From NCBI GenBank assembly GCA_041661385.1, contig JBAZUP010000001.1, forward strand, positions 354,560 through 418,559: 64,000 nucleotides of DNA. Reading direction: 5' to 3'. Made by a program: the position numbers and the translations under genes. Positions 13,985 through 60,178 of the stretch are shown piece after piece (within the stretch, counting starts at the first letter, position 1; each line of letters starts with the position of its first letter). This stretch comes from Patescibacteria group bacterium. Its GTDB lineage: Bacteria > Patescibacteriota > Patescibacteriia > Magasanikbacterales > GWA2-37-8. The notes under the pieces are model-generated. The model was not told the origin of the DNA. It did no database searches and worked only from the letters and a program-made list of their open reading frames with translations.

Positions 13985-14068
13985 TTAGGGCGGGCGGAAG
14001 GAGGCCTGCCCGCAATACTACGCATAGCGTTGCAGGCGGGGGTTTGGGGAGGAATTCCGCCCGCCCTG
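13985..14068. repeat. GC-rich structured element bounded by a perfect 13-bp inverted repeat (AGGGCGGGCGGAA / TTCCGCCCGCCCT)
   Basis: 55-65% GC segment inside a ~35% GC genome, with nested GC stems (gcctgc...gcaggc). Follows the stop of the minus gene 14093..15130, so it may act as a long-stem terminator. Confidence 0.4.
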
Positions 14069-14092
14069 GGGCCCGCGCGCTTTTTGACGATT

Positions 14093-15130: not shown

Positions 15131-15798
15131 ATTTTCTTTAAACTCAACAATACGGTTTTAAAAACTAATCCTCGAGCCAAGCCTCTGCCTCTCCATAAAA
15201 AAATAACAAACAATAATGAACTTAAAATACTATAATAAAAGTATTTATTAACTAATAAAATAACGGCTATAATAAAAAATTCCAAAGAAATCACTCGCAC
15301 AAACAAATAATTTCTGTTTGCCGTTTTTATTTCATCAGTTTCACTTACATGAGAGTAAAGTTTCCAAAAAATACTCTGAGACATATCATCATTATTTTTA
15401 TCCTTTTTCCACCACCAAAAAGACAAATCAGAATATTTCTGGTTAAAAGGGCGTAACACCGCTTCTTCTAATTTAATATCTTTTACCAATTCATTTCTTT
15501 TATTCTCATTCTTTATTACTGGATTACAACTGTATAAAAAGACTTCTGACGGTCTTCGTAATTTAAAAAAGATATCTATGACCCACTCTATCTCGTGAGC
15601 AATGGTTTGCAGCACCTCCCCAGCAATGAACGCGGAACAAAAAAACAAAAATGTGTAAAGAAAATCCAAATTTTCGTTAAAGCCAAAATTAATTTTATCT
15701 ACAAATATAAAAAATAGGATTAACAATAAAAATCCGCCAGGCATTACCTTAATGACCAAGTCTTCTAATGAGAATTTTTCTACCATAATATTAAACAA
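15127..15798 (-). CDS. Hypothetical membrane protein
   Basis: 223 aa with N- and C-terminal TM helices. Overlaps the downstream gene by 4 nt (operonic). Confidence 0.35.
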   Translation of the reverse strand: MFNIMVEKFSLEDLVIKVMPGGFLLLILFFIFVDKINFGFNENLDFLYTFLFFCSAFIAGEVLQTIAHEIEWVIDIFFKLRRPSEVFLYSCNPVIKNENKRNELVKDIKLEEAVLRPFNQKYSDLSFWWWKKDKNNDDMSQSIFWKLYSHVSETDEIKTANRNYLFVRVISLEFFIIAVILLVNKYFYYSILSSLLFVIFLWRGRGLARGLVFKTVLLSLKKI

Positions 15799-15825
15799 TA
15801 ATGATTTGTAGAATCTACAAACTCA

Positions 15826-16491
15826 CTACAAACCTAAGGCGGTTAGCTTTTGATCAATATAGTCGGAGCCTTGTGTTTCTCGCGGAAACGATCCGTCGGC
15901 ATTAAAGAATGTAATCTCTTTTTCAGGGTGGGTGGCCTTCTTTGGAAAGAAAGATGTAATTTTTTCAATATCAGTAAATGGCGCTTTTTCTATTTCTTCT
16001 CCTTCGATTTCTGCAGTATGAGCTCCCGAAGACAATGATTTGGTATTTGGTCTCTCCTTTATAAGCTCGCCCATTCTCGTAGCTGCTAACTGCCAATAAG
16101 TCGCGAGAGCTATTTCATGTTCAACGATAGATCCTTCATGGAATTTTTCAAGGTGTTCCAATAACTCTTTTGTGACATCCCAAAGAGAATCATATTTCAT
16201 TGAACCCTCGGAGTAATCAATTTTAGTTGACTCTCCGATCATAAGTAAAAACATTGATTTAAGTAAATAGTCTTTTCCGTCTATATTACTTTGTCGAGAA
16301 AATACCTCAATCCAACTGTCATCAATTTTTTCAAATAAATGAGGGTAATCTTTAAATCTTTCTTTCCTTTTTAGCTCGTATTCAGCATTAGATTTCTCGC
16401 TTGCAATCGCTTCTTTCTCGTCTTCTTTCTGGCGATAAATCCGCCAGAGTATATAGGCTATTATTGCCAACAAAATATAAACTAAAGTCAT
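15826..16491 (-). CDS. Hypothetical protein with N-terminal TM anchor
   Basis: 221 aa. TM helix LVYILLAIIAYILWRI followed by a charged soluble domain. Confidence 0.35.
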   Translation of the reverse strand: MTLVYILLAIIAYILWRIYRQKEDEKEAIASEKSNAEYELKRKERFKDYPHLFEKIDDSWIEVFSRQSNIDGKDYLLKSMFLLMIGESTKIDYSEGSMKYDSLWDVTKELLEHLEKFHEGSIVEHEIALATYWQLAATRMGELIKERPNTKSLSSGAHTAEIEGEEIEKAPFTDIEKITSFFPKKATHPEKEITFFNADGSFPRETQGSDYIDQKLTALGL

Positions 16492-16499
16492 AAATTTAT

Positions 16500-17105
16500 C
16501 TAAAAAATAAGTGATAGATAATTTCGGAATTTAATTATAACCCCAATAATTAGAAAGATGGTAGCTACTACAACAAATTGATTTTTAGACAAACTAGAAA
16601 TTGGAATCTTTTTCCCGTCATTTAAGATTTTAACCAATTTGTTTCTTTCTAAGCATGCGGGGCAAATATACGGATTTGTTGATACAAAAAATATTAATAG
16701 CCCAAATATATTCAGTATGGTAAATAAAAATGCAATTCCAAAGATCCAGCGCGCTTCCCATTTGTATGGTTTTTTAACCTGACCACAACGTTTGCACTCT
16801 ACAAAAATTATATAAGATTTGCTTTTTTCAGGAATAATTAACTTGTTTAAAGAAAGCGCGGATGCAACAGCATTTTTGTTTTGAATTGTTTCTTCGTTTT
16901 GATTAGCAAAATATTCAGCATCAGAGGCAGCTTTAATCTGCTCATCTTTTTTCTGTAAATCTTCAGTTGTTTTTAGATCAGTAAATAATTTTGTCTTTTC
17001 CTCCTCCAAATACTTGTAATATTTTTGCCATTCCACTTCTGGGTCCAAGCCCTCATCCTTCATCCGTTTGACCGCCCTTTGCTCAAAAATTTTTTCGTCC
17101 GTCAT
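16500..17105 (-). CDS. Hypothetical protein with zinc-ribbon-like CxxC...CxxC pair and a TM segment
   Basis: 201 aa. CKRCGQ...ICPACLERN flanking a hydrophobic helix. Confidence 0.35.
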   Translation of the reverse strand: MTDEKIFEQRAVKRMKDEGLDPEVEWQKYYKYLEEEKTKLFTDLKTTEDLQKKDEQIKAASDAEYFANQNEETIQNKNAVASALSLNKLIIPEKSKSYIIFVECKRCGQVKKPYKWEARWIFGIAFLFTILNIFGLLIFFVSTNPYICPACLERNKLVKILNDGKKIPISSLSKNQFVVVATIFLIIGVIIKFRNYLSLIF

Positions 17106-17122
17106 AAATTTTTATTAGTTTT

Positions 17123-17575
17123 TCAATTAAAAAATTTATCAATAGCCGATAATGTACTGAATAAATTTAGTCCCGGCAGAAGTTTATCAGTAAACGCAAA
17201 AATAAGCACAAGTGTAAACATAAAAAGAATTAAGCCGGCGACAGGAATTAAAGACAGCAATTTTTTAATGCCCTTTTGTTGATTTAGTAATTTAATAAAA
17301 TAATAAAATAGCGTACCGACGACAACGAGATCAATGGCATACAGCCACCATATGAAAACTAACGAAAAAGTTGATACTCCTTCAGATGCCGCCGAGTGAA
17401 AAAAAGAGGATGCCAATAAAAATATTGTGGTTTTTAGAAAAGTCCAACCGACAGGAGCAAAAAAACTATAGATTACATAAACAAGCAAAAGAAGTCGCAA
17501 TGGCAAAAGAAAATCCCTTTTTAAAACATCATGCAAGAAAAATGATTTGACCTGGTCATATTGAGAGTTCTTCAT
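17123..17575 (-). CDS. Hypothetical polytopic membrane protein
   Basis: 150 aa with 4 predicted TM helices. Confidence 0.35.
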   Translation of the reverse strand: MKNSQYDQVKSFFLHDVLKRDFLLPLRLLLLVYVIYSFFAPVGWTFLKTTIFLLASSFFHSAASEGVSTFSLVFIWWLYAIDLVVVGTLFYYFIKLLNQQKGIKKLLSLIPVAGLILFMFTLVLIFAFTDKLLPGLNLFSTLSAIDKFFN

Positions 17576-17583
17576 ATGTAAAA

Positions 17584-17781
17584 CTACATAATTAAATCAT
17601 CAATACTTATCTCAAGTGCTTTTGCAATTTTCTTGAGAGTATCTAGAGTAGGATTTTGGTTTTTTCCTGACTCAATTTTAATAATCGTGTTATTTGCCAC
17701 ATCGGCTAATCTGGCCAATTTTTCTTGTGATAATTTTTTGTCTTCTCTAAGTTTTCGTAAATTTGTGTTAATGTTTGACAT
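17584..17781 (-). CDS. XRE-family (Cro/cI-type) helix-turn-helix transcriptional regulator
   Basis: 65 aa. LSQEKLARLADVANNTIIKIESGKNQNPTLDTLKKIAKALEISIDDL is a canonical HTH_3 signature. First gene of a tightly packed minus-strand operon running 17781 to 14093. Confidence 0.7.
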   Translation of the reverse strand: MSNINTNLRKLREDKKLSQEKLARLADVANNTIIKIESGKNQNPTLDTLKKIAKALEISIDDLIM

Positions 17782-17926
17782 ACCTACATCAGAATAGTAG
17801 AATTAAAGTGGTAGTAATATTTCTTTTCTAGTACTTTAAAGCTACACCCAAAATTCGAAATAGACAAGGGAGTTCCAACCCCCTCTGCGCATAGGTCAAG
17901 TTCCACTCCATAATATCTTACAAAAT

Positions 17927-17956
17927 AAAATAACTCCTTATTTAAGGAGTTATTTT
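17927..17956. terminator. Palindromic intrinsic terminator (aaaataactccttatttaaggagttatttt)
   Basis: Perfect 12-bp stem with A/T flanks. Lies downstream of the 18100..22895 operon and upstream of the XRE operon promoter. Confidence 0.45.
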
Positions 17957-18099
17957 ATTTGCAGGACAGTCCGGTCTAGAACTTTTTATGGTGAGGCCGT
18001 TGAGGGCTTCTTGAAGGGTCGCTTCCCCTTCTATATAATCCCTCTCGGTCGGGGTCTAAAATGCGACAAATGCGACAGAGCTAACAATATATGATGACC

Positions 18100-18852
18100 T
18101 TATTTTTTTATTGTATTTTCAGCCAAAATGGTTCTTCTTTTAAATTCTTTTAGAATATCATTTGAGTCAATTGATTTTCTAAAATGAAAACAACTCGCTT
18201 GATTTTTCTCCGGAACAACATAATCAATCAAACTCTTCCCGTCTGGATCCCCACAGTGAACTTGATGGACAAATTGCTTACTATATTTTTCTCTATCATT
18301 ATAGTCACAATAATAAATGATCTTGTCGGTACTTAGCTGGAATACATGGGAATCCCCGTGGCCAAAAAAATATACTTCTTTTATACTTTTATCACTCATT
18401 ATTTTCTCAATATCTTTAACATTTGCCATAGTATAAAATGAAAACCTCTTACCTTCTATTTTTAACAATTCAACTAACGCAACAATTTCGCTTTTTAAAT
18501 AATTATGTTTAATCCAAGCTTCCAACTTAAACCAGTCTGATTGCCCTAAAACAATGACGGTTTCCGCAGGAATGTTTTGTTCAAAAGTATTAATATACTT
18601 GTGTATTAAATGGTCCTGGATTGGAATTATAATTGCAAATATTGGTGAGAGAAAAAACCTCAAAAAATCATCCCAGAAAATCAAGGTTCCATAAACCATT
18701 ACAAAAAATACATGTACATAAACAACAGAAAGAAAACCATACCCCTTAATTACCAAAACACCCAAACAAAAAATATAAACAAAAAATTGAATCAACCCCA
18801 CATCGGTTCTTCTCAAAATTTTTTCTACTTTTTTCATAAAAATTTCAACCAA
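18100..18852 (-). CDS. Membrane protein with two N-terminal TM helices and a C-terminal soluble domain containing GHGDSH and downstream Cys motifs; candidate effector/accessory of the adjacent CBASS-like operon
   Basis: 250 aa. TM helices FFVYIFCLGVLVIKGYGFLSVVYV and VFFVMVYGTLIFW. C-terminal VYFFGHGDSHVFQLS…IIYYCDY…VHCGDPDG. Start codon 6 nt after the stop of the upstream gene. Confidence 0.45.
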   Translation of the reverse strand: MVEIFMKKVEKILRRTDVGLIQFFVYIFCLGVLVIKGYGFLSVVYVHVFFVMVYGTLIFWDDFLRFFLSPIFAIIIPIQDHLIHKYINTFEQNIPAETVIVLGQSDWFKLEAWIKHNYLKSEIVALVELLKIEGKRFSFYTMANVKDIEKIMSDKSIKEVYFFGHGDSHVFQLSTDKIIYYCDYNDREKYSKQFVHQVHCGDPDGKSLIDYVVPEKNQASCFHFRKSIDSNDILKEFKRRTILAENTIKK

Positions 18853-18858
18853 TAATAG

Positions 18859-19449
18859 CTAGAATGCCCCAATAAATTTAAGCTTCCATCTATCAGTATA
18901 TTTTAGTTCAATTTTTTTATATCTAAATTTATATTTTATAAGACTAAAATTGTCAAAAAGTTGACCCGCATCATCTAAAACACTACTTAGCCCATCTTCC
19001 GTCAAATCATTTGGAATTAATATTCTTAATGACGGTTCAAACGGGCCAGAAATTGTATTTGCCAAGACAATAAATTCACGGTTTTTGCTTTGCAAATACT
19101 TATACGATTTAACGACAACCAATTTTGTAATCTCCCACCCGATGTTGGGCAAAACAAATACCGTAAAAAAATATATACCTGGACCAATCCATGATTCAAT
19201 ACTAAAATAACCGCCGCCGCCCAACATCGGCTCATTTCTTCCTCTAATCAAATCGTTTAATCTAAACTTAAAAAAATGCTTAATCCCAAACCACTTATAA
19301 TTAAAATACCCTTTAATTATATCGATATAATATAATCTACTTTTAAAGTAGATCTTCACCTCGCCATTACCTGCAATCGTTCCCTCTAAATCTTTTAGAA
19401 TTTTATTATTAAGCGATTCATCTGTTACAAATATGGTAGTTTTATCCAT
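18859..19449 (-). CDS. Hypothetical protein in the CBASS-like operon (one central hydrophobic segment)
   Basis: 196 aa, no recognisable motif. Gly-rich loop MLGGGGYF. Hydrophobic stretch IGPGIYFFTVFVLPNIGW. Only a 6-nt gap to the NTase gene stop. Confidence 0.4.
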   Translation of the reverse strand: MDKTTIFVTDESLNNKILKDLEGTIAGNGEVKIYFKSRLYYIDIIKGYFNYKWFGIKHFFKFRLNDLIRGRNEPMLGGGGYFSIESWIGPGIYFFTVFVLPNIGWEITKLVVVKSYKYLQSKNREFIVLANTISGPFEPSLRILIPNDLTEDGLSSVLDDAGQLFDNFSLIKYKFRYKKIELKYTDRWKLKFIGAF

Positions 19450-19455
19450 AATAAT

Positions 19456-20832
19456 TTATCTCTTTTTAATAAATCTAAAGCGCCGTCTGTTTATGATATT
19501 TACATGAAAAGGACCACTGCGTGCTACCATTCGGCCTCGGTTTACAACGAAGCATTCAATCCAATGTTTCCCCGAATATGAAGCTTTTTCGTGATTTATT
19601 TTTTGATTCGAAGTCAACTTATTATAGAGATCTTTACCCTTAAAAAATCCACCTCTCAACCCATTATCTTGTTTTGCTTCTATCCCCGTGTTCACGACCT
19701 GCCAAAATATTTCAGAACCTGCCGGCTCATTTAAAGTGATGGCTTCATATTTAAAAGTATTTCCGTCAAATTGAACCGGTCCGTTTGAAGGAATTTCCAT
19801 TAATTTATATCCACTCGAAGTACATTTAATTTTTACTGAACAACCTACATTTGTGATTGGCCATTCTGGCACTTTAAGGTGTTGATAATCTCCAAGCGGA
19901 AACACTGTTTCAGATAGTTGCTTTTCCGCGTCCTTTACAGCAATCAAAAAATCATCGCCAAAAATTTCAGTCCATTTCTTAACTGAACTTTCAAAGTCCG
20001 GATCATCATATGCGTCACTGATCTTTTCGGTATATAATTTAAATTTATCTCTAAAATTTTCATACTTTTCTTGATCCCAATGCCTATTAAAATCTTCACT
20101 CGGGAGGCTTGGATTAACAATTGTAGGCATTACTGGATTTCGCTGTAAATAGTCATTAACACGGTTACAAATATTTTTTAACGTCGTTGGTACATCTGAA
20201 AATATAATAACTGGATCGCTAACATAAACATTTTGACCAAGAAGAGTAGTGAGCAAAATTGATTTTACATTCATTAATTTTGTATCACGAAGATACTTAA
20301 CAAGTCTAACAACTTTAACCAAATTATTTTGTGCAGCAGAATTCTTTGCTGAAAACCATTCCGCGTATCCATCAGCGTCAGTTATTTCGTATTGATTGGT
20401 ATTTTTATTCATGATCTTTTGATTGCCGGCATCATCAACACATGGGATAATATCCATATGAAAATCGGATTCATAATCCAAGGTCACGCAACGAGTTTTT
20501 CCCCGTTTATCAACAATATCTTTATATCTATCAGTTTTGAAAAACTCATCATGAAGAATTGCTAAATAGTCCTTCGGTTCCCATCCATTAACTTTTTTTA
20601 GCTGAAAAAGTAAATCAACATCAAAATCTTTATTATCCATGCATGGCTTTATGATCGTTCCCTGACGATATGACCCTTGAGGTTTTACTGAAATAAAATA
20701 TTTTTTAAAAATGTCATTATTTTTTAGAAATTTTTCTACTGTTTCTATCCCCGTTTTTGCAACATCAATCCTATTTTGATTAAGATTAACTGTATTCTGT
20801 AAAAATATTGAAAACTCGTTAACTAGATTCAT
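19456..20832 (-). CDS. cGAS/DncV-like (SMODS-type) nucleotidyltransferase with an extra C-terminal ~150-aa domain (AGS-C-like sensor domain)
   Basis: 458 aa. Minimal NTase signature GSYRQGTIIKPCMDNKDFDVDLLF (GS…[DE]h[DE]h) plus a third acidic residue in FHMDIIPCV. The C-terminal segment VPEWPITNVGCSVKIKC…HWIECFVVNRGRMVARSG lies beyond the NTase core. Confidence 0.7.
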   Translation of the reverse strand: MNLVNEFSIFLQNTVNLNQNRIDVAKTGIETVEKFLKNNDIFKKYFISVKPQGSYRQGTIIKPCMDNKDFDVDLLFQLKKVNGWEPKDYLAILHDEFFKTDRYKDIVDKRGKTRCVTLDYESDFHMDIIPCVDDAGNQKIMNKNTNQYEITDADGYAEWFSAKNSAAQNNLVKVVRLVKYLRDTKLMNVKSILLTTLLGQNVYVSDPVIIFSDVPTTLKNICNRVNDYLQRNPVMPTIVNPSLPSEDFNRHWDQEKYENFRDKFKLYTEKISDAYDDPDFESSVKKWTEIFGDDFLIAVKDAEKQLSETVFPLGDYQHLKVPEWPITNVGCSVKIKCTSSGYKLMEIPSNGPVQFDGNTFKYEAITLNEPAGSEIFWQVVNTGIEAKQDNGLRGGFFKGKDLYNKLTSNQKINHEKASYSGKHWIECFVVNRGRMVARSGPFHVNIINRRRFRFIKKR

Positions 20833-20833
20833 A

Positions 20834-22012
20834 TCATGAAGGATTAACTATAATGGTTTCTTCGTAATTTCCTTTATCATTCCTGTCGTAAATAATTAAG
20901 GAAGGCGTAACACCCTTTAGCAACTCCCTACCTATGTGAAAAGCTAAAGAAACCGGAACTGCTGCAAAGACATGCAGTTCTTTTGTACTAGGGTGGAGTT
21001 TCTCAATTTCTCTCAATAGCTGTGCGTATCGTACACGAAAAATTTCGGCAGATTTATTTGATCCAATTATACTCCTAGAACTATCTTCCCCAATGGGATT
21101 AAGCCTATAAATGGTAAAAGATTTACCGATGTTGGCTGGGAGAGCGTTTCGCGCTATTACGCCGCTCGCAGAAATGCAAAGTGCGATTTTATCCTTAGCA
21201 CCGATCTGCTCCACGGTGGATTTAAAATCTATGGAACCTTTTATGGATGGCCATTTCCAACTCTCAGACGAATCCCTGTGCTTTTGATATATATCAATTT
21301 TAATTTTATCGCCAATTTTATTGCCGAAATAAGCTATTAACGGAATCCTGGCGAGCGCAAAAACGGAGATATGCTTGACCGACCCATCTTCAATCGATGG
21401 AAAAATTTTGAGATCGACAACCTTATCAATAATTTTTTTTCCTTCATCCCAGTAATAAGAATCCTTTCCAGCAATTTTAGACAAGTCAATTTCTATACCG
21501 TTTTGTTTCCCAGCCATAAGGTACCGGGGATAACGATTACAAGCTAAAACCGCTTCTCGTATTTCACCATCTGAGACAGAAACTGTACCTCCTCTAATAT
21601 TACCAATTAATCGAATGACTGCTGTTTCCGATTCTGGTCCGAGCGAGGTTTGGTACAAAATCCTATCTTCATGAACTTTTTTATATTCCAAAAGGAGTTC
21701 AACCGGAAAATCTTTCGGAGATTTATCTATAATTTTATTATGATGTTCTGAACAGAGAAGCATCAAATTGCCTACTTTGTTTCTATCCGTGACAGGAAGA
21801 GAACAACTCCCTCGAGGCCCCTTCCGTGACCGTCCAACAACGTGCGCAACATCCCCCAAAAAAAGTTCATTTAATCCTGTAAACTCATCATCCAATAGGT
21901 ACTTATTGCACCCTAAAAATTCACATCTGCCACCCGCTCTAACCCACAGAGCTATTCTCACTGGATTGGATTGTGTTATTGAAGATGCTTTTTCTTCAGT
22001 AGTCTTCGGCAT
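20834..22012 (-). CDS. cap5: Cap5-type effector: HNH endonuclease fused to a SAVED cyclic-oligonucleotide sensor domain
   Basis: 392 aa. N-terminal HNH (GGRCEFLGCNKYL…HVVGRSRKGP…NLMLLCSEHHNKIID). C-terminal SAVED hallmark HVFAAVPVSLAFHIGRELL…IIYD. Confidence 0.75.
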   Translation of the reverse strand: MPKTTEEKASSITQSNPVRIALWVRAGGRCEFLGCNKYLLDDEFTGLNELFLGDVAHVVGRSRKGPRGSCSLPVTDRNKVGNLMLLCSEHHNKIIDKSPKDFPVELLLEYKKVHEDRILYQTSLGPESETAVIRLIGNIRGGTVSVSDGEIREAVLACNRYPRYLMAGKQNGIEIDLSKIAGKDSYYWDEGKKIIDKVVDLKIFPSIEDGSVKHISVFALARIPLIAYFGNKIGDKIKIDIYQKHRDSSESWKWPSIKGSIDFKSTVEQIGAKDKIALCISASGVIARNALPANIGKSFTIYRLNPIGEDSSRSIIGSNKSAEIFRVRYAQLLREIEKLHPSTKELHVFAAVPVSLAFHIGRELLKGVTPSLIIYDRNDKGNYEETIIVNPS

Positions 22013-22014
22013 AT

Positions 22015-22245
22015 TTAATGAACTTTATCCTTTGGCGGACAACTATCGTTGCCGAAACTGTCCTTATCTTTAATTAGACCATGTCGATTGTGATAAACGG
22101 CCTCAACCTCAGCTCTTTTTGCGAGAGTGTGAGTTTTGTCTTCAGCGGCCTCTTGAGTGCGATGAACCGAAACCGGCTTACTTACCCCTTCTTTTTTTAC
22201 AGCCCAGTCACCATCCCAGGGCACACTATGATAATTTTTTGCCAT
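22015..22245 (-). CDS. DUF2188-family small protein
   Basis: 76 aa. MAKNYHSVPWDGDWAVKKEGVSKP…HTLAKRAEVEAVYHNRHGLIKDKDSFGNDSCPPKDKVH matches the conserved DUF2188 pattern (W.VK.EG…H.TQ.EA…G.I.DKDSYGNDP.PP.D). Its stop abuts the cap5 start. Confidence 0.6.
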   Translation of the reverse strand: MAKNYHSVPWDGDWAVKKEGVSKPVSVHRTQEAAEDKTHTLAKRAEVEAVYHNRHGLIKDKDSFGNDSCPPKDKVH

Positions 22246-22259
22246 AAATAAATAATAAA

Positions 22260-22895
22260 TTATTTTTTAACAACTCTAACCACAACGCCATTAACAAAAT
22301 ATTTGCCATCCTCTACATCCTCTTCGTGGATCGTTATTGGCGGTGCGTCGTTATCCGTCTCAGAAATAAGTCTGATTTCATGCTTTGTATTGTCCTTAAA
22401 AAATTTCTTAATATTCGCGGCACCGTCAATTACCGACAAAACATAATTCCCGTTGCTGGGTTTTTGCTTGCATTCAACAACTACATAATCACCGGTTTCG
22501 ATTCCTTCTCCCTTAATGTTAGCGCCAGTCATAGAATCACCCACCGCTCTAACCGCAATGAGTCCGTCCGGCCGATATTGCCCAATTGATTTTTTAGAAA
22601 TTTTTAAATAGCCCTCAATATGAGTTTCGGCTAATTCTGTGGCTGGACCACAACTCGCTGATCCGACAATGGGAATATTAAAAAAGTTATCCACAGTATA
22701 CCCCTGGGGCTTTGCCACCCGCTGACGCTTATTGGAATCAAAATACAACAACCCCTTCTTCTTTAGCTGCTCTAGATTATATATGACGGACTGAGGATGT
22801 TTAACCCCGATTTCACGCATTATTTCCCTGAATTTCATATCAGAAATATCCTTTTTTTTGGCTAATTTTAGTAATTTTTCTTGTGTTTCGTTCAT
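22260..22895 (-). CDS. LexA-like repressor (winged-HTH + S24 autopeptidase domain)
   Basis: 211 aa. N-terminal wHTH (IMREIGVKHPQSVIYNLEQLKKKGLL). S24 catalytic Ser in AVGDSMTGANI and Lys in AANIKKF. First gene of the operon. Confidence 0.7.
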   Translation of the reverse strand: MNETQEKLLKLAKKKDISDMKFREIMREIGVKHPQSVIYNLEQLKKKGLLYFDSNKRQRVAKPQGYTVDNFFNIPIVGSASCGPATELAETHIEGYLKISKKSIGQYRPDGLIAVRAVGDSMTGANIKGEGIETGDYVVVECKQKPSNGNYVLSVIDGAANIKKFFKDNTKHEIRLISETDNDAPPITIHEEDVEDGKYFVNGVVVRVVKK

Positions 22896-22970
22896 AAACC
22901 TATATTTTATCGGTTTTTTAAATATAATGCCTGCTATAAATTCAGCGGGGCTGATACCCCATCGGTTATA

Positions 22971-22999
22971 GTATATTATAAATGATTTATAATGTCAAG
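22971..22999 (-). promoter_or_regulatory. Sigma70-like promoter for the lexA-like operon with a 17-bp palindromic operator in the spacer
   Basis: In minus orientation: TTGACA – ttataaatcatttataa (17 nt) – TATACT. The spacer is a perfect inverted repeat TTATAAAT c ATTTATAA (22977..22993). Confidence 0.45.
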
Positions 23000-23015
23000 A
23001 GATTTTTTAACACCC

Positions 23016-23044
23016 TTGACACCAATCAAAACCGAGCGTACAAT
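23016..23044 (+). promoter_or_regulatory. Divergent sigma70-like promoter for 23077..23553 (TTGACA-17-TACAAT)
   Basis: cTTGACAccaatcaaaaccgagcgTACAATc, about 30 nt upstream of the ATG at 23077. Confidence 0.45.
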
Positions 23045-23076: not shown

Positions 23077-23553
23077 ATGAAACTAGTAATTTCCCAAGCC
23101 AAACCAAACCCGACCGGCAAGGACCGTCCCCCGTTTGGATCAATCCTGCCGTTTCAGTTAGCGGCGGAATGGATTGATATTACCAACTCCGACAATGCAA
23201 GCATAAATCTTAATGGCCTTCAAATATATAATCTTTCCTATACGAACGGAACAGCACAATGGAGAATTGTTCGTGAATTTAATCTTGGCAACAAATGCAT
23301 GTTGCCACCGGGAAAAACTGTAAGACTGCACTCTGGAAAAGAAATATCAACAAATACAATGCGAACTGAAGATCAACTCGGCACCAACTACCATCTTTTC
23401 ACCGAATATAATAATTACATTTGGAACAATAAACAAATTGATAGGCCATGTATTTTTAACCCCTCCACAAAAGCAACATTAGACGTAACCCAATATAACC
23501 CGCCTGTCCCCGATGGAAAAATTTTAAAAAGATATGGAGACTTTCTTATTTAA
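23077..23553 (+). CDS. Lamin-tail-domain (LTD)-like protein
   Basis: 158 aa. LVISQAKPNPTGKDRPPF…AAEWIDITNSDNASINLNGLQIYN…KTVRLHSGK follows the LTD pattern (NP.G.D..EWIEL.N....v.L.G..L). Confidence 0.45.
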   Translation: MKLVISQAKPNPTGKDRPPFGSILPFQLAAEWIDITNSDNASINLNGLQIYNLSYTNGTAQWRIVREFNLGNKCMLPPGKTVRLHSGKEISTNTMRTEDQLGTNYHLFTEYNNYIWNNKQIDRPCIFNPSTKATLDVTQYNPPVPDGKILKRYGDFLI

Positions 23554-23654: not shown

Positions 23655-23720
23655 TGAAACGAGCGCTCGCCTTTCTACAACACCCTTGGTGTTTTAGTTG
23701 GGCGGGCGCTTTTTTTAAAG
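23655..23720 (+). terminator. Long-stem GC-rich terminator (gcgctcgcc…ggcgggcgc + T7)
   Basis: 9-bp GC stem with a ~39-nt loop, followed by ttttttt after the + gene 23077..23553. Shares the GGGCGGGCG motif with the element at 13985..14068. Confidence 0.4.
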
Positions 23721-23755: not shown

Positions 23756-25084
23756 ATGATTAATACAAAACTTAACATCGTGGAAGTTCCGGTCAACGAA
23801 CTTCGAGCGTCGGAATACAATCCACGCAAACATTCTAAAGAACAATCCGACCAGCTTAAGAAATCAATTGAGCGCTTCGGCCTCGTGGACCCAATCATTT
23901 GTAATAACGCACCGGAGCGAAAAAATATCATCGTTGGCGGCCACTTTAGAGCCGAAGTAGCCAAAGAGTTAGGCCTGACCACGGTACCTGTAGTGTATGT
24001 CTGTATTACAGAGATACAAAAGGAACAGGAGCTTTCAGTCCGTCTTAACAAAAATACCGGGGAGTTTGACCTTGATCTCCTAGCAGAATTTGACGAAGCC
24101 TTCCTAGCCGATGTCGGTTTTGATAGCGAAGAGATAGATGACATCTTTCCTACTGAGGTAAATACCGAGATGTTTGACTTGAAAAAGGAACTAGAAAAAT
24201 TAAATATCCAAGAAATTACCGTACAGAAAGGAGACACTTACGAATTGAACGGCTCTCGCCTCCGGTGTGGCGATTCAACAATTGAGGCGGATGTTATTAA
24301 ACTTATGAATGGCGAAAAGGCCGACATGTGCTTTACCGATCCACCATATATCCTTGATTACCTCAAAGGTAAAACAAAAAATAAGGATGGAGTGACCGTT
24401 GGCTTTGGCGCTAAAAAGAATCGTCGCTACCTTGAAACCGACGAACTGCCACCAGATTTTACGGAAAAATGGATAGCTAATATTAACAAGGTTGCCAAAG
24501 AGAGCTTTGCCATCATTGTTTATGAGAACTGGAAGAACCTTCGGATTATTTGGGGCGAGCTTGAGAAATATTGGAAAGTAAAAAATATGATTGTTTGGCA
24601 CGTCCCTAATCGGATGCAAGGATTTTCAGCTAAAAATAAATTCTTTAATAAACACGATATTGCCATGGTCGGGGCGTCGGAAGACAAAGCGCTTGAAGCA
24701 GAAGATGAAGGCGAACTGCTTGAAAATGAATATGAGACGGCGCTCTACGCCATTGCTGGCAAGCCACATTGGGAATCCTACGAAACCGGCAAAAAAATCT
24801 GCCCGACCGATTTTATAGATTATAAGGCGGCTGACGAAAAATCATCAGGACAAGGTGTAATCTTTGGAACCAAACCAACCGAAATCCTTATCCCCTACAT
24901 TAAAGTCCTTACCAAGCGAAACGATCTGATCGTTGAACCTTTCGGTGGTAGTGGTTCAACCCTAATTTCAGCGATTAAGATGAATCGCCGCTGTTATATC
25001 ATGGAAAAATCACCAGTTTACACCGAAGTCATTTTGAAACGCTGGGAAAAAGAAACTGGAGAAAGACCAAAGAAAATCAACTAA
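23756..25084 (+). CDS. ParB-like nuclease N-terminal domain fused to an N6-adenine/N4-cytosine DNA methyltransferase
   Basis: 442 aa. ParB/Srx motif (VNELRASEYNPRKH, IIVGGHFR). MTase motif IV TDPPY and motif I EPFGGSGST. Confidence 0.75.
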   Translation: MINTKLNIVEVPVNELRASEYNPRKHSKEQSDQLKKSIERFGLVDPIICNNAPERKNIIVGGHFRAEVAKELGLTTVPVVYVCITEIQKEQELSVRLNKNTGEFDLDLLAEFDEAFLADVGFDSEEIDDIFPTEVNTEMFDLKKELEKLNIQEITVQKGDTYELNGSRLRCGDSTIEADVIKLMNGEKADMCFTDPPYILDYLKGKTKNKDGVTVGFGAKKNRRYLETDELPPDFTEKWIANINKVAKESFAIIVYENWKNLRIIWGELEKYWKVKNMIVWHVPNRMQGFSAKNKFFNKHDIAMVGASEDKALEAEDEGELLENEYETALYAIAGKPHWESYETGKKICPTDFIDYKAADEKSSGQGVIFGTKPTEILIPYIKVLTKRNDLIVEPFGGSGSTLISAIKMNRRCYIMEKSPVYTEVILKRWEKETGERPKKIN

Positions 25085-25085
25085 T

Positions 25086-25670
25086 ATGATCGACGACAAG
25101 ACAAAACTAAACCTTCTAAAAGAAATCCAAAAAAACGGTAACGTTAGTTTGTCTTGCATTAGAATTAATATTGATCACGCAACCTATTATCGCTGGAAAA
25201 AAGAAGATAAAGAATTTCGTAAAAAAGCCAACGAGGCTGAAACTATCGGAAGAAAAAATAATTGTGACCTGGCGGAGCACGCTTTAATACTTCTGGTAAA
25301 GGAAAAAAAGATAGAAGCTGTCAAATATTTACTAAGCCACAATTCACCCAGGTACAAACCAAAAACAACGAACGCTGTAATACTACATAAATCTTTACCA
25401 AAATTAGAACCAGTACCGACAAGAACCCTGGAGGATCTGCTGGTCGAGGATGGTGAACAGCGCAGAGAAAGATGCGTTAGTATCCAGAATAAATTTCTCG
25501 CCTTAGGCGGTGTTCCACCTAAGGCTGATGGATCGCCAATTGAATTTCACGAACTAATTGATTATGAGATATATATTGAGGAGTGGTATAAGAAGAAAGA
25601 TATTGATGACGAAAAGAAAAATATACCGACTACTGAGTATCAAAAAATTTCACCATTAACAAACGGCTGA
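25086..25670 (+). CDS. Phage terminase small-subunit-like HTH protein
   Basis: 194 aa. N-terminal LKEIQKNGNVSLSCIRINIDHATYYRWKKEDKEFRKKANEA resembles the TerS/homeodomain-like HTH. Confidence 0.4.
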   Translation: MIDDKTKLNLLKEIQKNGNVSLSCIRINIDHATYYRWKKEDKEFRKKANEAETIGRKNNCDLAEHALILLVKEKKIEAVKYLLSHNSPRYKPKTTNAVILHKSLPKLEPVPTRTLEDLLVEDGEQRRERCVSIQNKFLALGGVPPKADGSPIEFHELIDYEIYIEEWYKKKDIDDEKKNIPTTEYQKISPLTNG

Positions 25671-25673
25671 AAT

Positions 25674-26381
25674 TTATTTATATACTTCAAGTGACCCACC
25701 AAAAGCCGTGACCTCAGCCACCTTTTCATTAGATTGTACATCGCGAATTTCAAGGTGTTTAAAACCAGTTATCTCCTCCTTCAGCATTGCTAGCTTTGCA
25801 AGAATATCTTTTTTGAAAGTAACTTTTTGGGAATACCAAGCAGGACCGACGTAAACGACGCTTGCTGTTTTGGAAAACTCATATGAATCAAAAAGGCCAG
25901 CTTGTTTACCTAGATTAATTAGTTCATCCAGCTCCTTCTGTGCCTCTTCCTTTGGACGGGCTGTCTGCACTGTTGTAACTGCTTCAGTTTTAACTTGACT
26001 ATCCTTATTAACTTGCTCAGGGGTTGTACTCACAACAATTTGTTTATCCTGAATTTTAACTAAGGATTCCGGTTCTTTTTTTACTTCAGGAGCAGCGACA
26101 CCAATCATAATCAGAGAAACAAAACCCAACAAGCCAAATATTAAGGTTAATTTTTTTCTATTTGGCTGTGATTTAAAAAATCTTGTAAACAAAGACGGCT
26201 TGGCAAGACCAATAAACCAAGCAATTATTGATCCAAAAAATATAAAACCAAATAACGTTTGCATACTTATTTTAATAATTAAATAAATAAAGCCGACCTT
26301 TAGATAAGCCGGCATGAAACACAAAACCCCACGCCAGCTGGGCTTTTTACGGCCCCATACACCTTTCGATGTATGACTCAA
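25674..26381 (-). CDS. Hypothetical membrane protein (true start possibly at 26264, Met40 MQTLFGF…)
   Basis: TM helices followed by a Thr/Lys-rich linker and a C-terminal soluble domain. The first ~39 codons overlap a terminator-like palindrome and are probably not coding. Confidence 0.4.
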   Translation of the reverse strand: MSHTSKGVWGRKKPSWRGVLCFMPAYLKVGFIYLIIKISMQTLFGFIFFGSIIAWFIGLAKPSLFTRFFKSQPNRKKLTLIFGLLGFVSLIMIGVAAPEVKKEPESLVKIQDKQIVVSTTPEQVNKDSQVKTEAVTTVQTARPKEEAQKELDELINLGKQAGLFDSYEFSKTASVVYVGPAWYSQKVTFKKDILAKLAMLKEEITGFKHLEIRDVQSNEKVAEVTAFGGSLEVYK

Positions 26382-26385
26382 CTAA

Positions 26386-26428
26386 GAATAGCTGAACGTG
26401 GAGTTCAGTGTCTTAGTTGAGTTTCGAA
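26386..26428. repeat. Long imperfect inverted repeat (actcaactaaga…tcttagttgagt) in the intergenic region 5' of the serine recombinase
   Basis: 12-bp arms plus 5-bp inner arms (ctgaac/gttcag). Candidate recombinase att core, operator or part of a structured RNA. Confidence 0.35.
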
Positions 26429-26639
26429 GCACCATGCCTAGAGGTTATCTGGGTTTAGGTACTTGGCCTTCCAGCCTGAATTGTCAATGACATTTTAGCT
26501 AAATTATAGCCAAATGTCCAGCACATAATAGCTTAGAATAGGTGCTTTGCGAAGCTTAGTTATCTACAGTTTGTCTACTAGGGGCTCTGGACTAACTAGC
26601 GGGGTCTGCGTCATTAATGTCTATGAGATAATATAATCT

Positions 26640-27932
26640 ATGGACCAAATCACAGCCCCTCCTACCCAATATTGCCTATACGCCCGTAAGTCGTCCGAAT
26701 CAGACGAAAAGCAGGCCCTTTCAATAGATTCCCAGATCAAAGAGATGACCAAACTAGCCGAACGGGATGGACTCTATATAAAGGAGATTAGGCGAGAAAG
26801 TCATTCGGCCAAGGCTTCGGGGCAAAGGCCGGTATATAACGAGTTGATTGAGGATATTAGGAAAGGGTTATTTACCGGTATTTTAACTTGGGCACCGGAT
26901 CGGCTGAGCAGAAACGCCGGCGATCTGGGGTCGTTAGTTGATCTAATCGACCAAAAACTACTTCACGAAATACGAACCTATGGTCAAAAATTTACCAATT
27001 CCCCTAACGAGAAATTTCTATTAATGATTCTGGGAAGTCAGGCAAAACTTGAAAATGATAACCGAGGCTTAAACGTAAAACGAGGTCTGAGAGCAAAAGT
27101 GGAGATGGGTCTGTGGCCTGGAGTGGCGCCAATCGGGTATTTGAATGAAAAACGAACGGATCGAAAATGCCACATTGTCATAGACCCTTTAAGAGCACCG
27201 ATTGTAAAAAAGATTTTTGAGAAAGCGGCAAATGATGGCTGGAGCGGTCGACAAATTCATGCTTGGTTAAAAAATGATTTAAACTTTAGATCAAAAAACA
27301 ATAAATATTTTGCCTTAAGCAATTTATACTTAATGCTTAGGAACACTTTTTACTACGGGTCACACGAATACCCAAAAGGGAGTGGCAATTGGTATACTGG
27401 GAATCACCAGCCTATTATTTCGAAAGAGCTTTTTGAGAAGGTTCAGGAAAGAATGTTGGATTATCAAGTCGGAAAAAGTAAAAGTAAAGAATTTGCCTTT
27501 ACCAAACTAATCACATGCGGACTATGTGGATCGGGTATTACCGCTGATGAAAAATTTAAAAAACAAAAAAATGGCACCATCCATCGCTACGTATATTATG
27601 GTTGTACAAAATACAAAGACTTAAATTGCAAATTAGGCTATATGAGAGAAGAAGATTTACTAAACCAAATACTTGAACTGATTGACAAAATTTCTCTGGA
27701 GGAGCTCGGGATGAAAGAAAAAATTGTAAAAGAAGTTGAACGGTATCATAAATTTCAATCGGGAGTTATGGGAATCAATCCTGAACAAAAAGAAAAACAA
27801 AAAAGGATTGATATTAAAAATTATGCCAAGTTTATTTTAAAAGAAGGGCAGGTGTTCGAAAAAAGAGATTTGTTGTCAAATTTAAAAAGCCATCTCACCC
27901 TTGAGAATAAATTATTAAACTTAAAAAATTAA
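26640..27932 (+). CDS. Large serine recombinase (integrase)
   Basis: 430 aa. Resolvase-type N-terminus with catalytic Ser (CLYARKSSESDEKQALSIDSQ). Recombinase domain and C-terminal zinc-ribbon/coiled-coil (CGLCGSGITADEK…YYGCTKY). Confidence 0.85.
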   Translation: MDQITAPPTQYCLYARKSSESDEKQALSIDSQIKEMTKLAERDGLYIKEIRRESHSAKASGQRPVYNELIEDIRKGLFTGILTWAPDRLSRNAGDLGSLVDLIDQKLLHEIRTYGQKFTNSPNEKFLLMILGSQAKLENDNRGLNVKRGLRAKVEMGLWPGVAPIGYLNEKRTDRKCHIVIDPLRAPIVKKIFEKAANDGWSGRQIHAWLKNDLNFRSKNNKYFALSNLYLMLRNTFYYGSHEYPKGSGNWYTGNHQPIISKELFEKVQERMLDYQVGKSKSKEFAFTKLITCGLCGSGITADEKFKKQKNGTIHRYVYYGCTKYKDLNCKLGYMREEDLLNQILELIDKISLEELGMKEKIVKEVERYHKFQSGVMGINPEQKEKQKRIDIKNYAKFILKEGQVFEKRDLLSNLKSHLTLENKLLNLKN

Positions 27933-27938
27933 TTTACT

Positions 27939-30900
27939 TTATTGAGATTTAAATGTCGCTATTATGGCAGCCCACGCATTGCTGGCAGATGTTGTGAATT
28001 TTGCAGCGGTTGTGGTAGCTATTGCTATGACTCTGTCTTCCGAGGCTAAACGTTGGTATGTACTAACTCCATTCACCAATTCTGTTTGACGAATTGTATA
28101 ACCTGAACCCGCCGTCCAGGAATTATTATTCCCAGCGCTCCATGCAAGCCCAAAATATAATTCATTTGTTGAAGTGGTTGTAATGTTGCCCGAACTAGGC
28201 GTAACTGAAGACCCTGTACCAGACATTGTCTTGTCTAACGGATTCGTTGTGTTTATTCCGGCATACTCATGAACCGCTAGCGTACCTGTGACGGTTGACG
28301 AAACAGTAAAACCTGATCCACCAATAACATTTTTCGCATAAAATATTGCAGCTCGATACGAATTTTTTACTGCCTCAGCGGCTTTATAATAAGTATTACC
28401 CTTATTGTCTGTAATTGTGCTGGTTGGAAAAGTGACATTATAGGCTGTAATTCCAACTACCACCAAATTACTTCCGACGACGGAGCCGGAAAAAGCAACT
28501 GATTTAGAACCGTGTGCTTTTTGACTTTGAATATAAGATGGTGACCCAGCAAGCGAAAAAGTTGACGTTGTTGTGCTCCACCCACCAGCCAACCCACCAA
28601 CGTCTTCAAAAGCAATACGCCAATAATAAATAGTACTTGAGACAAGTGCTGACCCCGCATAAGTAATTTCTGGACTTCGGCTGTTCTCGGTTGTCGTCGC
28701 CATCGTTGTAGTGCCAGAATCCCATTTTATAACCGTAAACGAACTAGAAGTTGAAACCTGGATACGATATTTGTTGGCCTGATCACCGGAATTAAGATCC
28801 GTATAAATTGCCGAGAATTTTGGCGTGCTTGTTAAGTTTGATGGATTAACAAGACCTTGAGTCAATGTGCTGGTTGGAACGGTTGGTGCGGTGTTCAATG
28901 AAAATGTTGAAGTGGCTGTGCTCCAGGCACCTACCAAGCCGCCCACATCAACAAACTCAACACGCCAATAATAAATAATGTTCGTCGCTAGAGCCGAACC
29001 TGTATAGAGTATGTCCGGACTCCTGTTTCCCTCTGTAGTTGTTACCATCGTTGTAGTGCCAGAATCCCATTTTATACTGGCAAAAACGCTCGAGGTTGAA
29101 ACTTGCAGACGATGCCTATTTGCTTGGTCTCCGGCATCTGGATCGTTATATATTGCTGAAAACCTTGGTGTAGTCGTTGCAATATTTGTTGGGTTAGTTT
29201 GACCTTCGACAAGCATGTCTGTTGGTGCGGCAGGTGCACTATTTAAGGAAAAAGTAGAAGTTTCCGCGCTCCAAGCACCGGGCAGACCCCCAACATCAAC
29301 GAGGGAAATTCGCCAATAATACACGATACTTGATGCAAGGGTTGAACCGCCATATGTAATGTCCGGAACTCTAGTTCCCGATGTCGTTGTCGCCATTGTC
29401 GTCGTGCCAGAGTCCCATTTAATATTTGAAAAAATACTTGAAGTTGAAACTTGAACGCGATACTTGTTAGCGGTATCACTCAAATCTAGATCGTTATAGA
29501 TCGCGGAGAATTTCGGCAAACTAACCATGAGGTTGGCTGGGTTAGTTTGATTTTCAGTCCAAAGTGCGGTGGGAGCAACCGGGGCTCTATTTGGGGGAAT
29601 GGTTTCAAAATAATCTTTTCCATTAGTCCATTGACCTTCATTGTCATCATTGTCCCATAGCTTAATCCGCCAATAATATTTAGTCCCATTCTGTAAACCC
29701 GACCCACCATAAACAATGTTAGGGATTCGACTGCCCGCGGGAGTATTTTCCGAAAATGTCTGTCTCCCGGAATCCCAAAACGGCGAAGTAAAGCTACCAC
29801 CACTTTGAATTAATTGAATCTGATAGCTATTCGCAGTTGAGCTTGCATCGAGTGATTCGTAGATTGCACTAAACTCTGGCGTTGAAGTTATTGTAATGAT
29901 TTGTTTTGGCACTAGACTAACGTTATCTACTTGGAAAGTATGGGCAATTCTACCCAGATAGAAAGTTACACGAGCATTCGAATCTCCCTGAGACGGGTTT
30001 ACTTCAAAGGAATATGATTGCCACGAAGGATTTACGGAAAAATCAGACCATGTTAAATCAGCATACGGATCGTGGTTTTGTGTCAAAACAACTGTCTCAG
30101 TTGTTGAAACGCTCGATTTGGCATCAAACTTAAGTAGGTAGGTAGTTGAAGTGTTAGCAATTAGATTCTGGCTTAATTGAACTTGATAGTGTTGTCCACT
30201 GTAATTCACAATAGTTTTGTTTGAACAATTTCCATCACTACCCTCCGAACAATCGACTGAATTGGTCGCTTGTGGGTCACCATTTTGTGACCAGAAATAC
30301 CAATTATTCATGCTCGTTTCAAAACTTGGATTCTTAATTAGGCTTAAATTATCTGGTGTAACTTCTACGTCTTCCAGCCAATAACTATTTATGTTGGTAC
30401 CAACATAATAGAAAACTCTAGCCAACTCATCGGTTCCATTGCTGGTAAAAGTAAACGCATACTGTTTCCAGTCTGGAGTAATTGAAACACCGGCGGCAAG
30501 GCCAAAATCTGACCAAGGACTATGGTCTTGATTAACACCAAAAGTAATTGTTGAGGTGGTGGTCGCCTTAGCTCTGAATTTAACTGTATAATTAATCCCA
30601 GTATCTACTCTTAAATCTTGCCAGAACTGGGAATCCCATACATTACCGGCACTTGAAACAATAATTTTCTGAGAACAGTTGCCAGTAAATGATACTGTGC
30701 AATCAACCGTATTTGTTCCACCATTACCAGACCAAAATTTCCAGTAATTTGTGGACCCATCTTCAAAACTATTATCATAAATTACATTATCACTTCTCAT
30801 GAGTCCTAAAGTTTGCAGATTTCTTGATTCCGATGGATTAATCATCAAAGACAAAACAAATGTTGAGGTATTAGCACTCCAGACTCCTTCATTATTAACT

Positions 30901-60151: not shown

Positions 60152-60178
60152 ATTTTACAAATGATTTATACCGCCATT

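Follow-up and report, generated by a model that had tools for sequence, protein, structure and literature searches.

A LexA-type repressor as the candidate regulatory head of a CBASS operon on a phage-derived integrative island in Patescibacteria

The DNA analyzed here, referred to as the window, is a 64,000-nucleotide stretch of a Patescibacteria group bacterium (contig JBAZUP010000001.1, positions 354,560 to 418,559), and the element in question is an operon that begins with a gene for a LexA-type repressor and continues into a cyclic-oligonucleotide-based antiphage signaling system (CBASS). Six minus-strand genes follow one promoter, with intergenic gaps of 14, 2, 1, 6, and 6 nt. The first gene (22260..22895) encodes a 211-aa repressor with a winged helix-turn-helix (wHTH) and an S24 peptidase domain (Pfam Peptidase_S24 5.7e-16, phrog_4 1e-17). 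It is followed by a gene for a 76-aa DUF2188 protein (22015..22245; Pfam 1.3e-15, PADLOC PDC-S16 5e-23, phrog_3220), which indeed lies between the repressor and cap5, as the initial annotation had placed it. The next two genes encode a Cap5-type CBASS effector with HNH and SAVED domains (20834..22012; SAVED 2e-35, PADLOC endonuclease effector 2.4e-109) and a cGAS/DncV-like nucleotidyltransferase (CD-NTase) with SMODS and C-terminal AGS_C domains (19456..20832; SMODS 5.3e-32, AGS_C 4.4e-22, PADLOC cyclase 3.1e-133), whose translation shows the GS...DxD motif. The CD-NTase and the nucleotide-sensing Cap5 effector are thus adjacent in one operon, which bears out the earlier suggestion of a CBASS-like system. 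The last two genes (18859..19449, 196 aa; 18100..18852, 250 aa) had no Pfam, PADLOC, or PHROG match.

The promoter that had been proposed, TTGACA and TATACT separated by 17 nt, is present on the minus strand at 22970..22998, with the −35 element at 22998..22993 and the −10 element at 22975..22970. With 11 of 12 positions matched, it ranks as the top minus-strand match within 13-28 kb of the window, and comparable promoters lie 5' of repressor homologues in related loci. Promoter-like sites within the operon are not in excess (49, compared with 48.5 in shuffled sequence). After the sixth gene, an AT-rich terminator-like hairpin with a T-run is found on the minus strand (17921..17960; AAATAAAATAACTCCTTAaatAAGGAGTTATTTTATTT), in which the core is a perfect palindrome (17933..17950) flanked by AT arms and the T-run. 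In 10 sister loci, at most 20 nt separate the repressor stop codon from the first cargo gene, or the two overlap. Because of the tight gaps, the one strong promoter, and the hairpin terminator after the sixth gene, the genes from the repressor through the two unmatched genes are predicted to be a single transcription unit with the repressor at the head of the CBASS.

A search of 5.8 billion proteins gave 408 relatives of the repressor. The source names shown among the best 120 of them were all Patescibacteria, with protein lengths of approximately 211 aa. We compared 80 GTDB loci and eight metagenomic loci (numbered with the prefix L), and the close group was defined by 50-68% identity to the window repressor. 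PF01726 (LexA_DNA_bind) scored 22.6 bits on the window protein, slightly below the cut-off of 23.7, and many homologues carry a precomputed PF01726 match. The profile of 25 homologues aligned residues 5-211 onto residues 8-198 of E. coli LexA (7b5g) with E = 1.4e-9. In this alignment, C82-G83 is in register with the LexA A84-G85 scissile bond, S121 with S119, and K163 with K156, and these residues are invariant among the 25 homologues. The helix region of the wHTH, with the family consensus NPQTVIYHLEQLKKKG, pairs with LexA SPNAAEEHLKALARKG. A CI-type phage repressor (HTH_3/Cro-C1 plus S24) was rejected, because HTH_3 had no match in the protein and its N-terminus aligns with the LexA wHTH instead. 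The match to phrog_4 ("transcriptional repressor") spans only the S24 part, residues 50-210. The architecture is that of LexA (wHTH and S24) rather than CI (HTH_3 and S24). The wHTH and Ser/Lys autopeptidase of the initial annotation therefore hold, with an S24 domain, a LexA-type wHTH, and a conserved catalytic dyad and cleavage site.

The promoter spacer (22976..22992) is filled by a perfect 8+1+8 palindrome, TTATAAATcATTTATAA, as had been reported, and the symmetry extends to 9+1+9. The same or a near-identical dyad occurs at the repressor promoter of L005, L007, L013, L015, L084, L085, L086, L093, L003, L083, L008/L010, and L091, and the consensus TTAKAAAT-N-AYTTMTRA describes the site in about 15 islands. 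The individual dyads are TTATAAATCGTTTATAA in L093, ATATAAATAATTTATAA in L085, TTATAATTAACTTATAA in L084, TTATAAATCACTTAGAT in L086, CTATAAATCATTTGTAG in L005, TTAGAAATCATTTCTGA in L091, TTAGAAATC[A/G]CTTCTGA in L008/L010, and TTAGAAAC[G/A]G[T/C]TTAGAT in L003/L083. A change from T to G at position 4 in L008, L010, and L091 is paired with a change from A to C at position 14, preserving the symmetry, and the DNA on either side of the hexamers has diverged between loci. The dyad sequence is intact in L085 and L007 but lies 6 and 3 nt nearer the −10 element, respectively, and this shift relative to the hexamers indicates a discrete element rather than a by-product of spacer composition.

The candidate operator is also specific to these promoters. 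Across 800 kb of related loci, copies differing from the window palindrome at one position or none were confined to L007, L013, and L015, where they lie 60-97 nt upstream of the start of the repressor gene. A position weight matrix (PWM) was built from 11 sites and scanned over 910 kb; all matches of at least 19 bits fell at these repressor promoters, and the scan independently recovered the L018 promoter at 16.4 bits. The census of SOS boxes proposed earlier was run in the 64-kb window; it returned the TTATAAATcATTTATAA site, but as a single exact copy, and none at repair genes. Elsewhere in the window, including the divergent promoter upstream of the repressor and the rest of the island, the matrix gave no other match above 17 bits. 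The cargo operon is therefore the sole detectable target. Weaker PWM matches at 42796/42807, inside a coding region, and at 60155 are not at repair genes either, and both were rejected as operator copies because they look like chance matches (coding location for the former, two mismatches and no promoter context for the latter). The two-mismatch site at 60155..60171 (GTATAAATCATTTGTAA, minus strand) lies 3 nt before the start of a 131-aa gene with a TspO-like-looking N-terminus. The dyad is likely the operator of the repressor. A dimer bound between the −35 and −10 elements would exclude RNA polymerase, which predicts negative autoregulation.

Promoter palindromes differ between recognition-helix classes. 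L063 shares the island backbone but has the recognition helix SPQKIKHHL instead of NPQTVIYHL and a different spacer palindrome, TTCAAAAATTTTGGAA. The PFKISYHL class has ACTTGaCAAGT over the −35 element, and the FPQKIKHHL class has the palindrome TTTTCTAGAAAA before the −10 element. A second element, the tandem TGTCAA-N3-TGT[C/A/T]AA, is located 8-12 nt upstream of the −35 element in nearly all lexA-like loci (23007..23021 in the window). It is kept across helix classes. We rejected it as the primary repressor site, because it is unchanged between the classes, has variable spacing to an inverted TTGACA, and coincides with divergent −35 boxes. A back-to-back divergent promoter is indeed located on the plus strand at 23007..23044, with TTGACA at 23016..23021, a 17-nt spacer, TACAAT, and an extra TTAACA hexamer 9 nt away; the TTGACA and TTAACA hexamers are the TGTCAA-N3-TGTNAA element read on the opposite strand. 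As a separate observation, more distant lexA-like genes carry a DnaA-box-like TGTGGATAA immediately upstream of the −35 element (L033, L034, L036, L041, L045, L048, L049, L052, L055-L058, L060, L064, L072, L074, L076, L077, and L079), and one class of them also has TTTTCTAGAAAA before the −10 element. These motifs may reflect a different type of LexA box and perhaps input from DnaA in these more distant genes.

The genes behind the repressor vary from island to island and most often encode immune systems. We defined the cargo slot as the genes that start within 20 nt of the repressor stop codon or after an intervening DUF2188 gene. The slot holds DUF2188, Cap5, and CD-NTase in the window and L010; a SAVED effector, CD-NTase, and E2 in L004; a CapV-type phospholipase and CD-NTase in L011; CD-NTase and E1/E2 in L021; SAVED and SMODS in L083; DUF2188, CD-NTase, and Cap15 in L084; and SMODS and SLATT in L093. 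Avs4 occupies the slot in L003, L015, L086, and L092 (PADLOC E = 0 for L003; the others are 45-91% identical to the L003 gene), and DUF2188 with two ThsB-type TIR proteins (Thoeris-like) in L085. No recognizable defense system was seen in the slot of nine other loci. The tally is eight CBASS loci, four Avs4-like loci, and one TIR/Thoeris-like locus. Because the slot contents differ between islands, we regard the repressor gene as the head of a cargo operon and not as a CBASS component. It is very likely that an island-borne LexA-type gene heads a swappable defense operon here.

DUF2188, which the initial annotation regarded as a possible co-regulator, goes with the repressor rather than with CBASS, judging from its distribution. 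About 12 of 23 islands have it, either downstream of the repressor or divergently upstream, and their cargo may be CBASS, Avs4, TIR, or none; five CBASS islands and half of the islands with a retained dyad lack it. Close homologues (70-86% identical, 77 aa) were repeatedly found on the same longest contig as repressor homologues. The AlphaFold2 model of the protein, made from 34 sequences, has a pLDDT of 86 and a beta3-alpha-beta2 fold, with no meaningful PDB match by sequence search or Foldseek. Its invariant residues are H6, W14, K18, E19, S26, H28, H52, G56, S63, G65, and D67. The family is listed as a candidate family in PADLOC. It is present in CapH/CapP-controlled operons (bioRxiv 10.1101/2022.04.27.489752), and the literature also describes it as a neighbor of the Pa011 CBASS and as part of a Thoeris island. 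It is notable that the family is repeatedly paired with two protease-coupled repressors that are unrelated to each other.

The repressor adjoins a divergently oriented, phage-derived gene backbone in 20 of the 24 close-group loci with enough upstream DNA. This backbone in the window includes, on the plus strand, a ParB_N and N6/N4 DNA methyltransferase protein (23756..25084; phrog_498 2.6e-78), which is 65-80% identical in nine GTDB loci (Magasanikbacteria, Uhrbacteria, Gracilibacteria, Falkowbacteria, and others), and a TerS-like HTH protein (25086..25670; phrog_4044 6e-5). The L026 orthologue of the latter matches TerS at 1.5e-12 (phrog_4044) and is followed by TerL at 1e-82; a large terminase (phrog_38, 1e-82) was found in three loci, and elsewhere there is mostly TerS alone. 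At the island end, a large serine recombinase is encoded on the plus strand (26640..27932; Resolvase, Recombinase, and Zn_ribbon_recom; phrog_95 6.6e-66), and orthologues of this integrase occupy the same position in L003, L004, L011, L018, L021, L026, L084, L085, and L090-L093. The host genes outside the module vary, with a 3008-aa surface protein in the window, tRNA synthetases in L090, SurA/BipA in L085, and CTP synthase in L086. Because these flanking genes change per locus, we consider the module an integrative element at differing sites and not a conserved chromosomal neighborhood. No virion structural genes were seen in the islands. The gene set of integrase, repressor, and TerS with or without TerL may be that of a satellite.

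Such a backbone raises the possibility that the repressor is a prophage or satellite immunity repressor which silences excision and packaging, with the CBASS as a passive "moron", like rexAB with lambda cI, that is lost and not boosted on induction. The phage-derived genes are consistent with this, including TerS at 1.5e-12 and TerL at 1e-82 in L026 and L023, the phrog_95 integrase, and the phrog_4 match of the repressor itself, as are the satellite-like predominance of TerS alone and the defense hotspots known beside regulatory genes in P2/P4 (PMC9122126). But neither the divergent promoter nor the backbone carries an operator copy, the dyad inside the repressor's own promoter points to negative autoregulation and not to a PRM-type arrangement, and no repressor relatives were found among 2.9 million IMG/VR viral contigs. 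We consider this explanation unlikely, and it is not exclusive of the gating of defense cargo by the repressor that we favor.

The initial annotation had also offered that the gene could be the housekeeping lexA, that is, the only SOS repressor of the organism, with the CBASS merely placed in the SOS regulon. The full LexA architecture agrees with this, the 64-kb window has no other S24 gene, and small genomes of the candidate phyla radiation could rely on a captured repressor. Moreover, the same recognition-helix subfamily includes chromosomal-looking members that precede repair genes: in L006, L009, and L025 an 81-aa gene and then an HhH-GPD glycosylase follow, and in L012, L014, L016, L022, and L032 NYN or XRE genes and RarA/MgsA come after the repressor gene. 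In a neighbor-joining tree of the repressors, which has no support values, these chromosomal members form two small clades nested in the island-borne sequences, and the deepest branches (L023, L026, L092, and L018/L021) are all island-borne. Of the 24 close relatives, 20 have the gene linked to integrase, TerS, and ParB-methyltransferase, at varied sites and with swappable cargo, which also argues against a housekeeping role, as does the lack of an operator copy above 17 bits elsewhere in the window or beside a repair gene. Another LexA class, with the PQKIKHHL helix, is widespread in Patescibacteria. No second lexA and no recA were found in the 64-kb window or in any compared locus, and the window has no repair genes. 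Given the phage-derived island with its swappable defense slot, and with no second operator copy, recA, or repair gene found in the window, the housekeeping alternative is not supported, and we judge it quite improbable. The chromosomal members and the tree suggest that operons led by lexA follow a common plan, in which the slot holds repair genes on chromosomes and immune genes on islands. The island repressor may also cross-talk with, or even serve as, the host SOS repressor.

Taken together, we favor, with moderate confidence, the reading that the window holds the regulatory head of a defense-cargo operon on a small phage-derived integrative island, and that this head would be autoregulated, cleavable in a RecA-dependent manner, and able to gate its cargo. 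DNA binding, cleavage, RecA dependence, the direction of regulation, and induction are here inferred from sequence comparison. In this model, the first gene of the operon would encode a repressor of LexA architecture, a dimer of which would bind the 17-bp dyad TTATAAAT-N-ATTTATAA in the −35/−10 spacer of its own promoter and thereby hold all six operon genes at low, self-limited transcription. RecA filaments on single-stranded DNA (ssDNA), arising from DNA damage or phage replication, may then stimulate the repressor to cut itself at Cys82-Gly83 by means of Ser121/Lys163, and the released operator would allow stronger transcription of the CBASS genes. The repressor and operator, often with DUF2188, would form a portable module, its slot being taken by other CBASS types, Avs4, or TIR genes in sister islands and by DNA-repair genes in two derived chromosomal lineages. 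Given the LexA architecture, the first position in the operon, and the conserved dyad between the −35 and −10 elements, autoregulation combined with de-repression of the defense genes on self-cleavage would be the most economical model. RecA-dependent induction of the CBASS is the more tentative part of the proposal, plausible at somewhat less than an even chance.

Several points weigh against this interpretation. Perfect 8-arm palindromes are not rare in the AT-rich window (17, compared with 8.5 ± 2.7 in Markov simulations), and the weight for the operator therefore rests on position and conservation. Shuffling the letters of the spacer itself gave 8/8 arms in only 67 of 20000 trials. The summed spacer dyad score of 17 non-redundant related promoters was 94, compared with 65.7 ± 3.9 in shuffles, none of 2000 of which reached it, and the mean dyad score was 5.5, compared with 3.3 in 55 other natural TTGACA-N17-TAnnnT spacers (Mann-Whitney p = 7e-7); the loci are mutually related, so these p-values overstate independence and are upper bounds on significance. 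About one third of the sister promoters, including those of L004, L017, L090, and L092, have weak dyads only. One operator per island is unusual for a phage-type master repressor and offers no cooperative switch. No relatives were found in IMG/VR, and the element may be a phage satellite, a stripped or defective prophage, or something else. The TGTCAA tandem could be the real control site or bind another factor. Finally, some LexA-like proteins, for example IrvR, are processed without RecA (PMC7101444).

In a further alternative, the palindrome is not the site of the repressor at all. It would be either functionless AT-rich symmetry or the target of DUF2188, an XRE protein, or a host factor, and the repressor would act at the TGTCAA repeats or elsewhere. 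The abundance of such palindromes is compatible with this, and so are the wider conservation of TGTCAA-N3-TGTNAA relative to the dyad and the variable right half of the dyad across loci. On the other hand, the dyad keeps its sequence while shifted 3-6 nt relative to the hexamers in L007 and L085, it changes along with the recognition helix in L063, and half of the dyad-keeping islands lack DUF2188. The TGTCAA element, in turn, stays constant across helix classes and coincides with divergent −35 boxes. We regard this alternative as having little probability and retain the dyad as the likely operator.

The closest structural relative of the repressor is LexA. As in E. coli and B. subtilis, it has a wHTH and an S24 domain with the scissile bond, Ser, and Lys in register, a palindrome over its own promoter, and the first position in its operon. 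Unlike LexA, it is borne by an island, its own operon is the only detectable target, and immune rather than repair genes lie downstream. The window site contains only A and T (TTATAAAT-N-ATTTATAA), whereas the known LexA boxes are CTGT-N8-ACAG and CGAAC-N4-GTTCG, which it does not resemble. The scissile bond is Cys-Gly, as in UmuD, and not Ala-Gly.

The closest functional analogues are CapH/CapP and CapW/BrxR. In CapH/CapP, too, a repressor is removed by proteolysis after DNA damage and controls CBASS and other defense operons. That system consists of an XRE-type HTH protein and a separate ssDNA-activated Zn metallopeptidase, divergent from the operon (Lau et al., 2022, bioRxiv 10.1101/2022.04.27.489752), whereas in the window a single self-cleaving S24 protein would act as the first gene product of the operon. 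No M78/ImmA-type metallopeptidase was found in the operon or its flanks, and a CapH-like XRE gene at 17781..17584 lacks a CapP partner. CapW/BrxR (PMC9122588, PMC9122601) is likewise a portable transcription factor beside many defense systems, keeping the promoter repressed until a signal arrives. The window repressor, however, has no WYL match, and its relief would occur by proteolysis rather than ligand binding. The closest genomic analogues are phage and satellite defense hotspots: lambda cI-rexAB and the P2/P4 hotspots (PMC9122126) also have defense genes beside regulators on a temperate or satellite element, in a fixed slot with rapid cargo swapping. They differ in the host, which here is a Patescibacteria member, in the regulator, which here has a LexA and not a CI fold, in the dyad position, which here predicts negative autoregulation, and in the backbone of serine integrase, ParB-methyltransferase, TerS, and LOOT RNA, which is unrelated. 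SetR of the SXT/R391 integrative and conjugative elements is an SOS-cleavable S24 repressor that is CI-like and controls transfer genes. It shares with the window repressor the S24 domain and the carriage by an integrative element, but no site was seen at the backbone genes of the window island, and the defense cargo would be the regulated genes. What appears new here is a LexA-type variant among the known damage-responsive defense regulators (CapH/CapP and CapW).

CBASS, Avs, and Thoeris kill or arrest the cell, and the mechanisms that keep them silent are still a practical question. The regulator classes known so far are two, WYL regulators and CapH/CapP. If the model is correct, a single-protein LexA-type switch would be a third, tying immunity directly to the RecA/ssDNA signal. 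In the literature that we searched, no LexA-type regulator was described at the head of CBASS, Avs, or Thoeris operons. We can imagine, more speculatively, an undescribed family of phage-satellite-like Patescibacteria islands in which a LexA-type damage switch gates any immune cargo, as a third independent solution after WYL regulators and CapH/CapP, and from which some chromosomal lexA operons may derive; this broader idea has a real but minor chance of being right. The locus points to a family of mobile islands that carry defense genes in the candidate phyla radiation, a group for which knowledge of mobile elements and immunity is scant. New defense genes could be sought in the fixed slot downstream of the repressor, where several cargo genes have no known family.

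The divergent promoter of the window leads into a lamin-tail-domain gene (23077..23553, plus strand) that is present in no other island. A terminator-like sequence lies at approximately 23690..23716, after this gene and between the divergent promoter and the ParB-methyltransferase gene. The insertion of the lamin-tail gene may have uncoupled the backbone operon from the divergent promoter in this genome.

A LOOT RNA (Rfam RF03000) is located on the minus strand at 26340..26461, with 67 bits compared with a gathering score of 46.4. LOOT is an orphan metagenomic RNA on which almost no literature was found, and it gains a genomic home here. As a conserved component of the backbone, it occurs at 74-83 bits in 7 of 11 related islands (L003 2701-2822, L004 3417-3535, L008 2411-2532, L010 2406-2527, L021 1726-1847, L084 6191-6311, and L085 6242-6372), on the strand of the repressor and between the integrase and the TerS/methyltransferase genes. 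Directly 3' of it lies a second variable gene slot, which contains an SNase nuclease, a DUF4352 protein, or a membrane protein.

On the integrase side of the island, a repetitive surface-type protein of 3008 aa (27939..36965, minus strand) ends 6 nt from the integrase stop codon, and any attachment site must therefore overlap the 3' ends of both convergent genes. On the other side, the tentative remainder of the island (14033..17781, minus strand) comprises an XRE HTH gene and five unknown genes, with a candidate left boundary near 14033. The 65-aa XRE protein (17781..17584; PADLOC capH 5.9e-13) heads a five-gene cassette (14093..17781), which may represent another regulated unit of island cargo; a 345-aa protein of this cassette has weak metallo-beta-lactamase and LmuA/DRT-MBL matches. 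The contigs of two independent assemblies (L088 and L089) end at 14032 and 14034. The GC content is 0.33-0.36 over 14-22 kb, compared with 0.38-0.44 outside, and rises from 0.33 to 0.38 across a GC-rich stretch at 13990..14080. This stretch is a candidate island boundary or strain-variable junction, for which the evidence is only suggestive. An empty site was sought by means of the DUF2127 neighbor, and only the same context was returned.

A PIF1-family helicase is encoded on the minus strand of the window at 11175..12632, and also at 3233-4915 in L022 and in L029 and L062. In these four loci it lies within a few genes of lexA-like genes, and the subfamilies differ. The gene may encode a helicase for replication of the element, or it may be regulated by damage.

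Beyond the integrase, defense or counter-defense genes were found in L092 (380-1126), L085 (109-2035), L091 (1-3299), L093 (1-652), and L086 (159-6403). These flanks include an Apyc1-like anti-Pycsar metallo-beta-lactamase, MamI-type and type IIG/type I restriction-modification genes, Dcm methylases, and a HATPase_c_3 and Hypoth_Ymh protein. Since defense genes flank several islands, the islands appear to sit in, or extend into, defense-rich regions.

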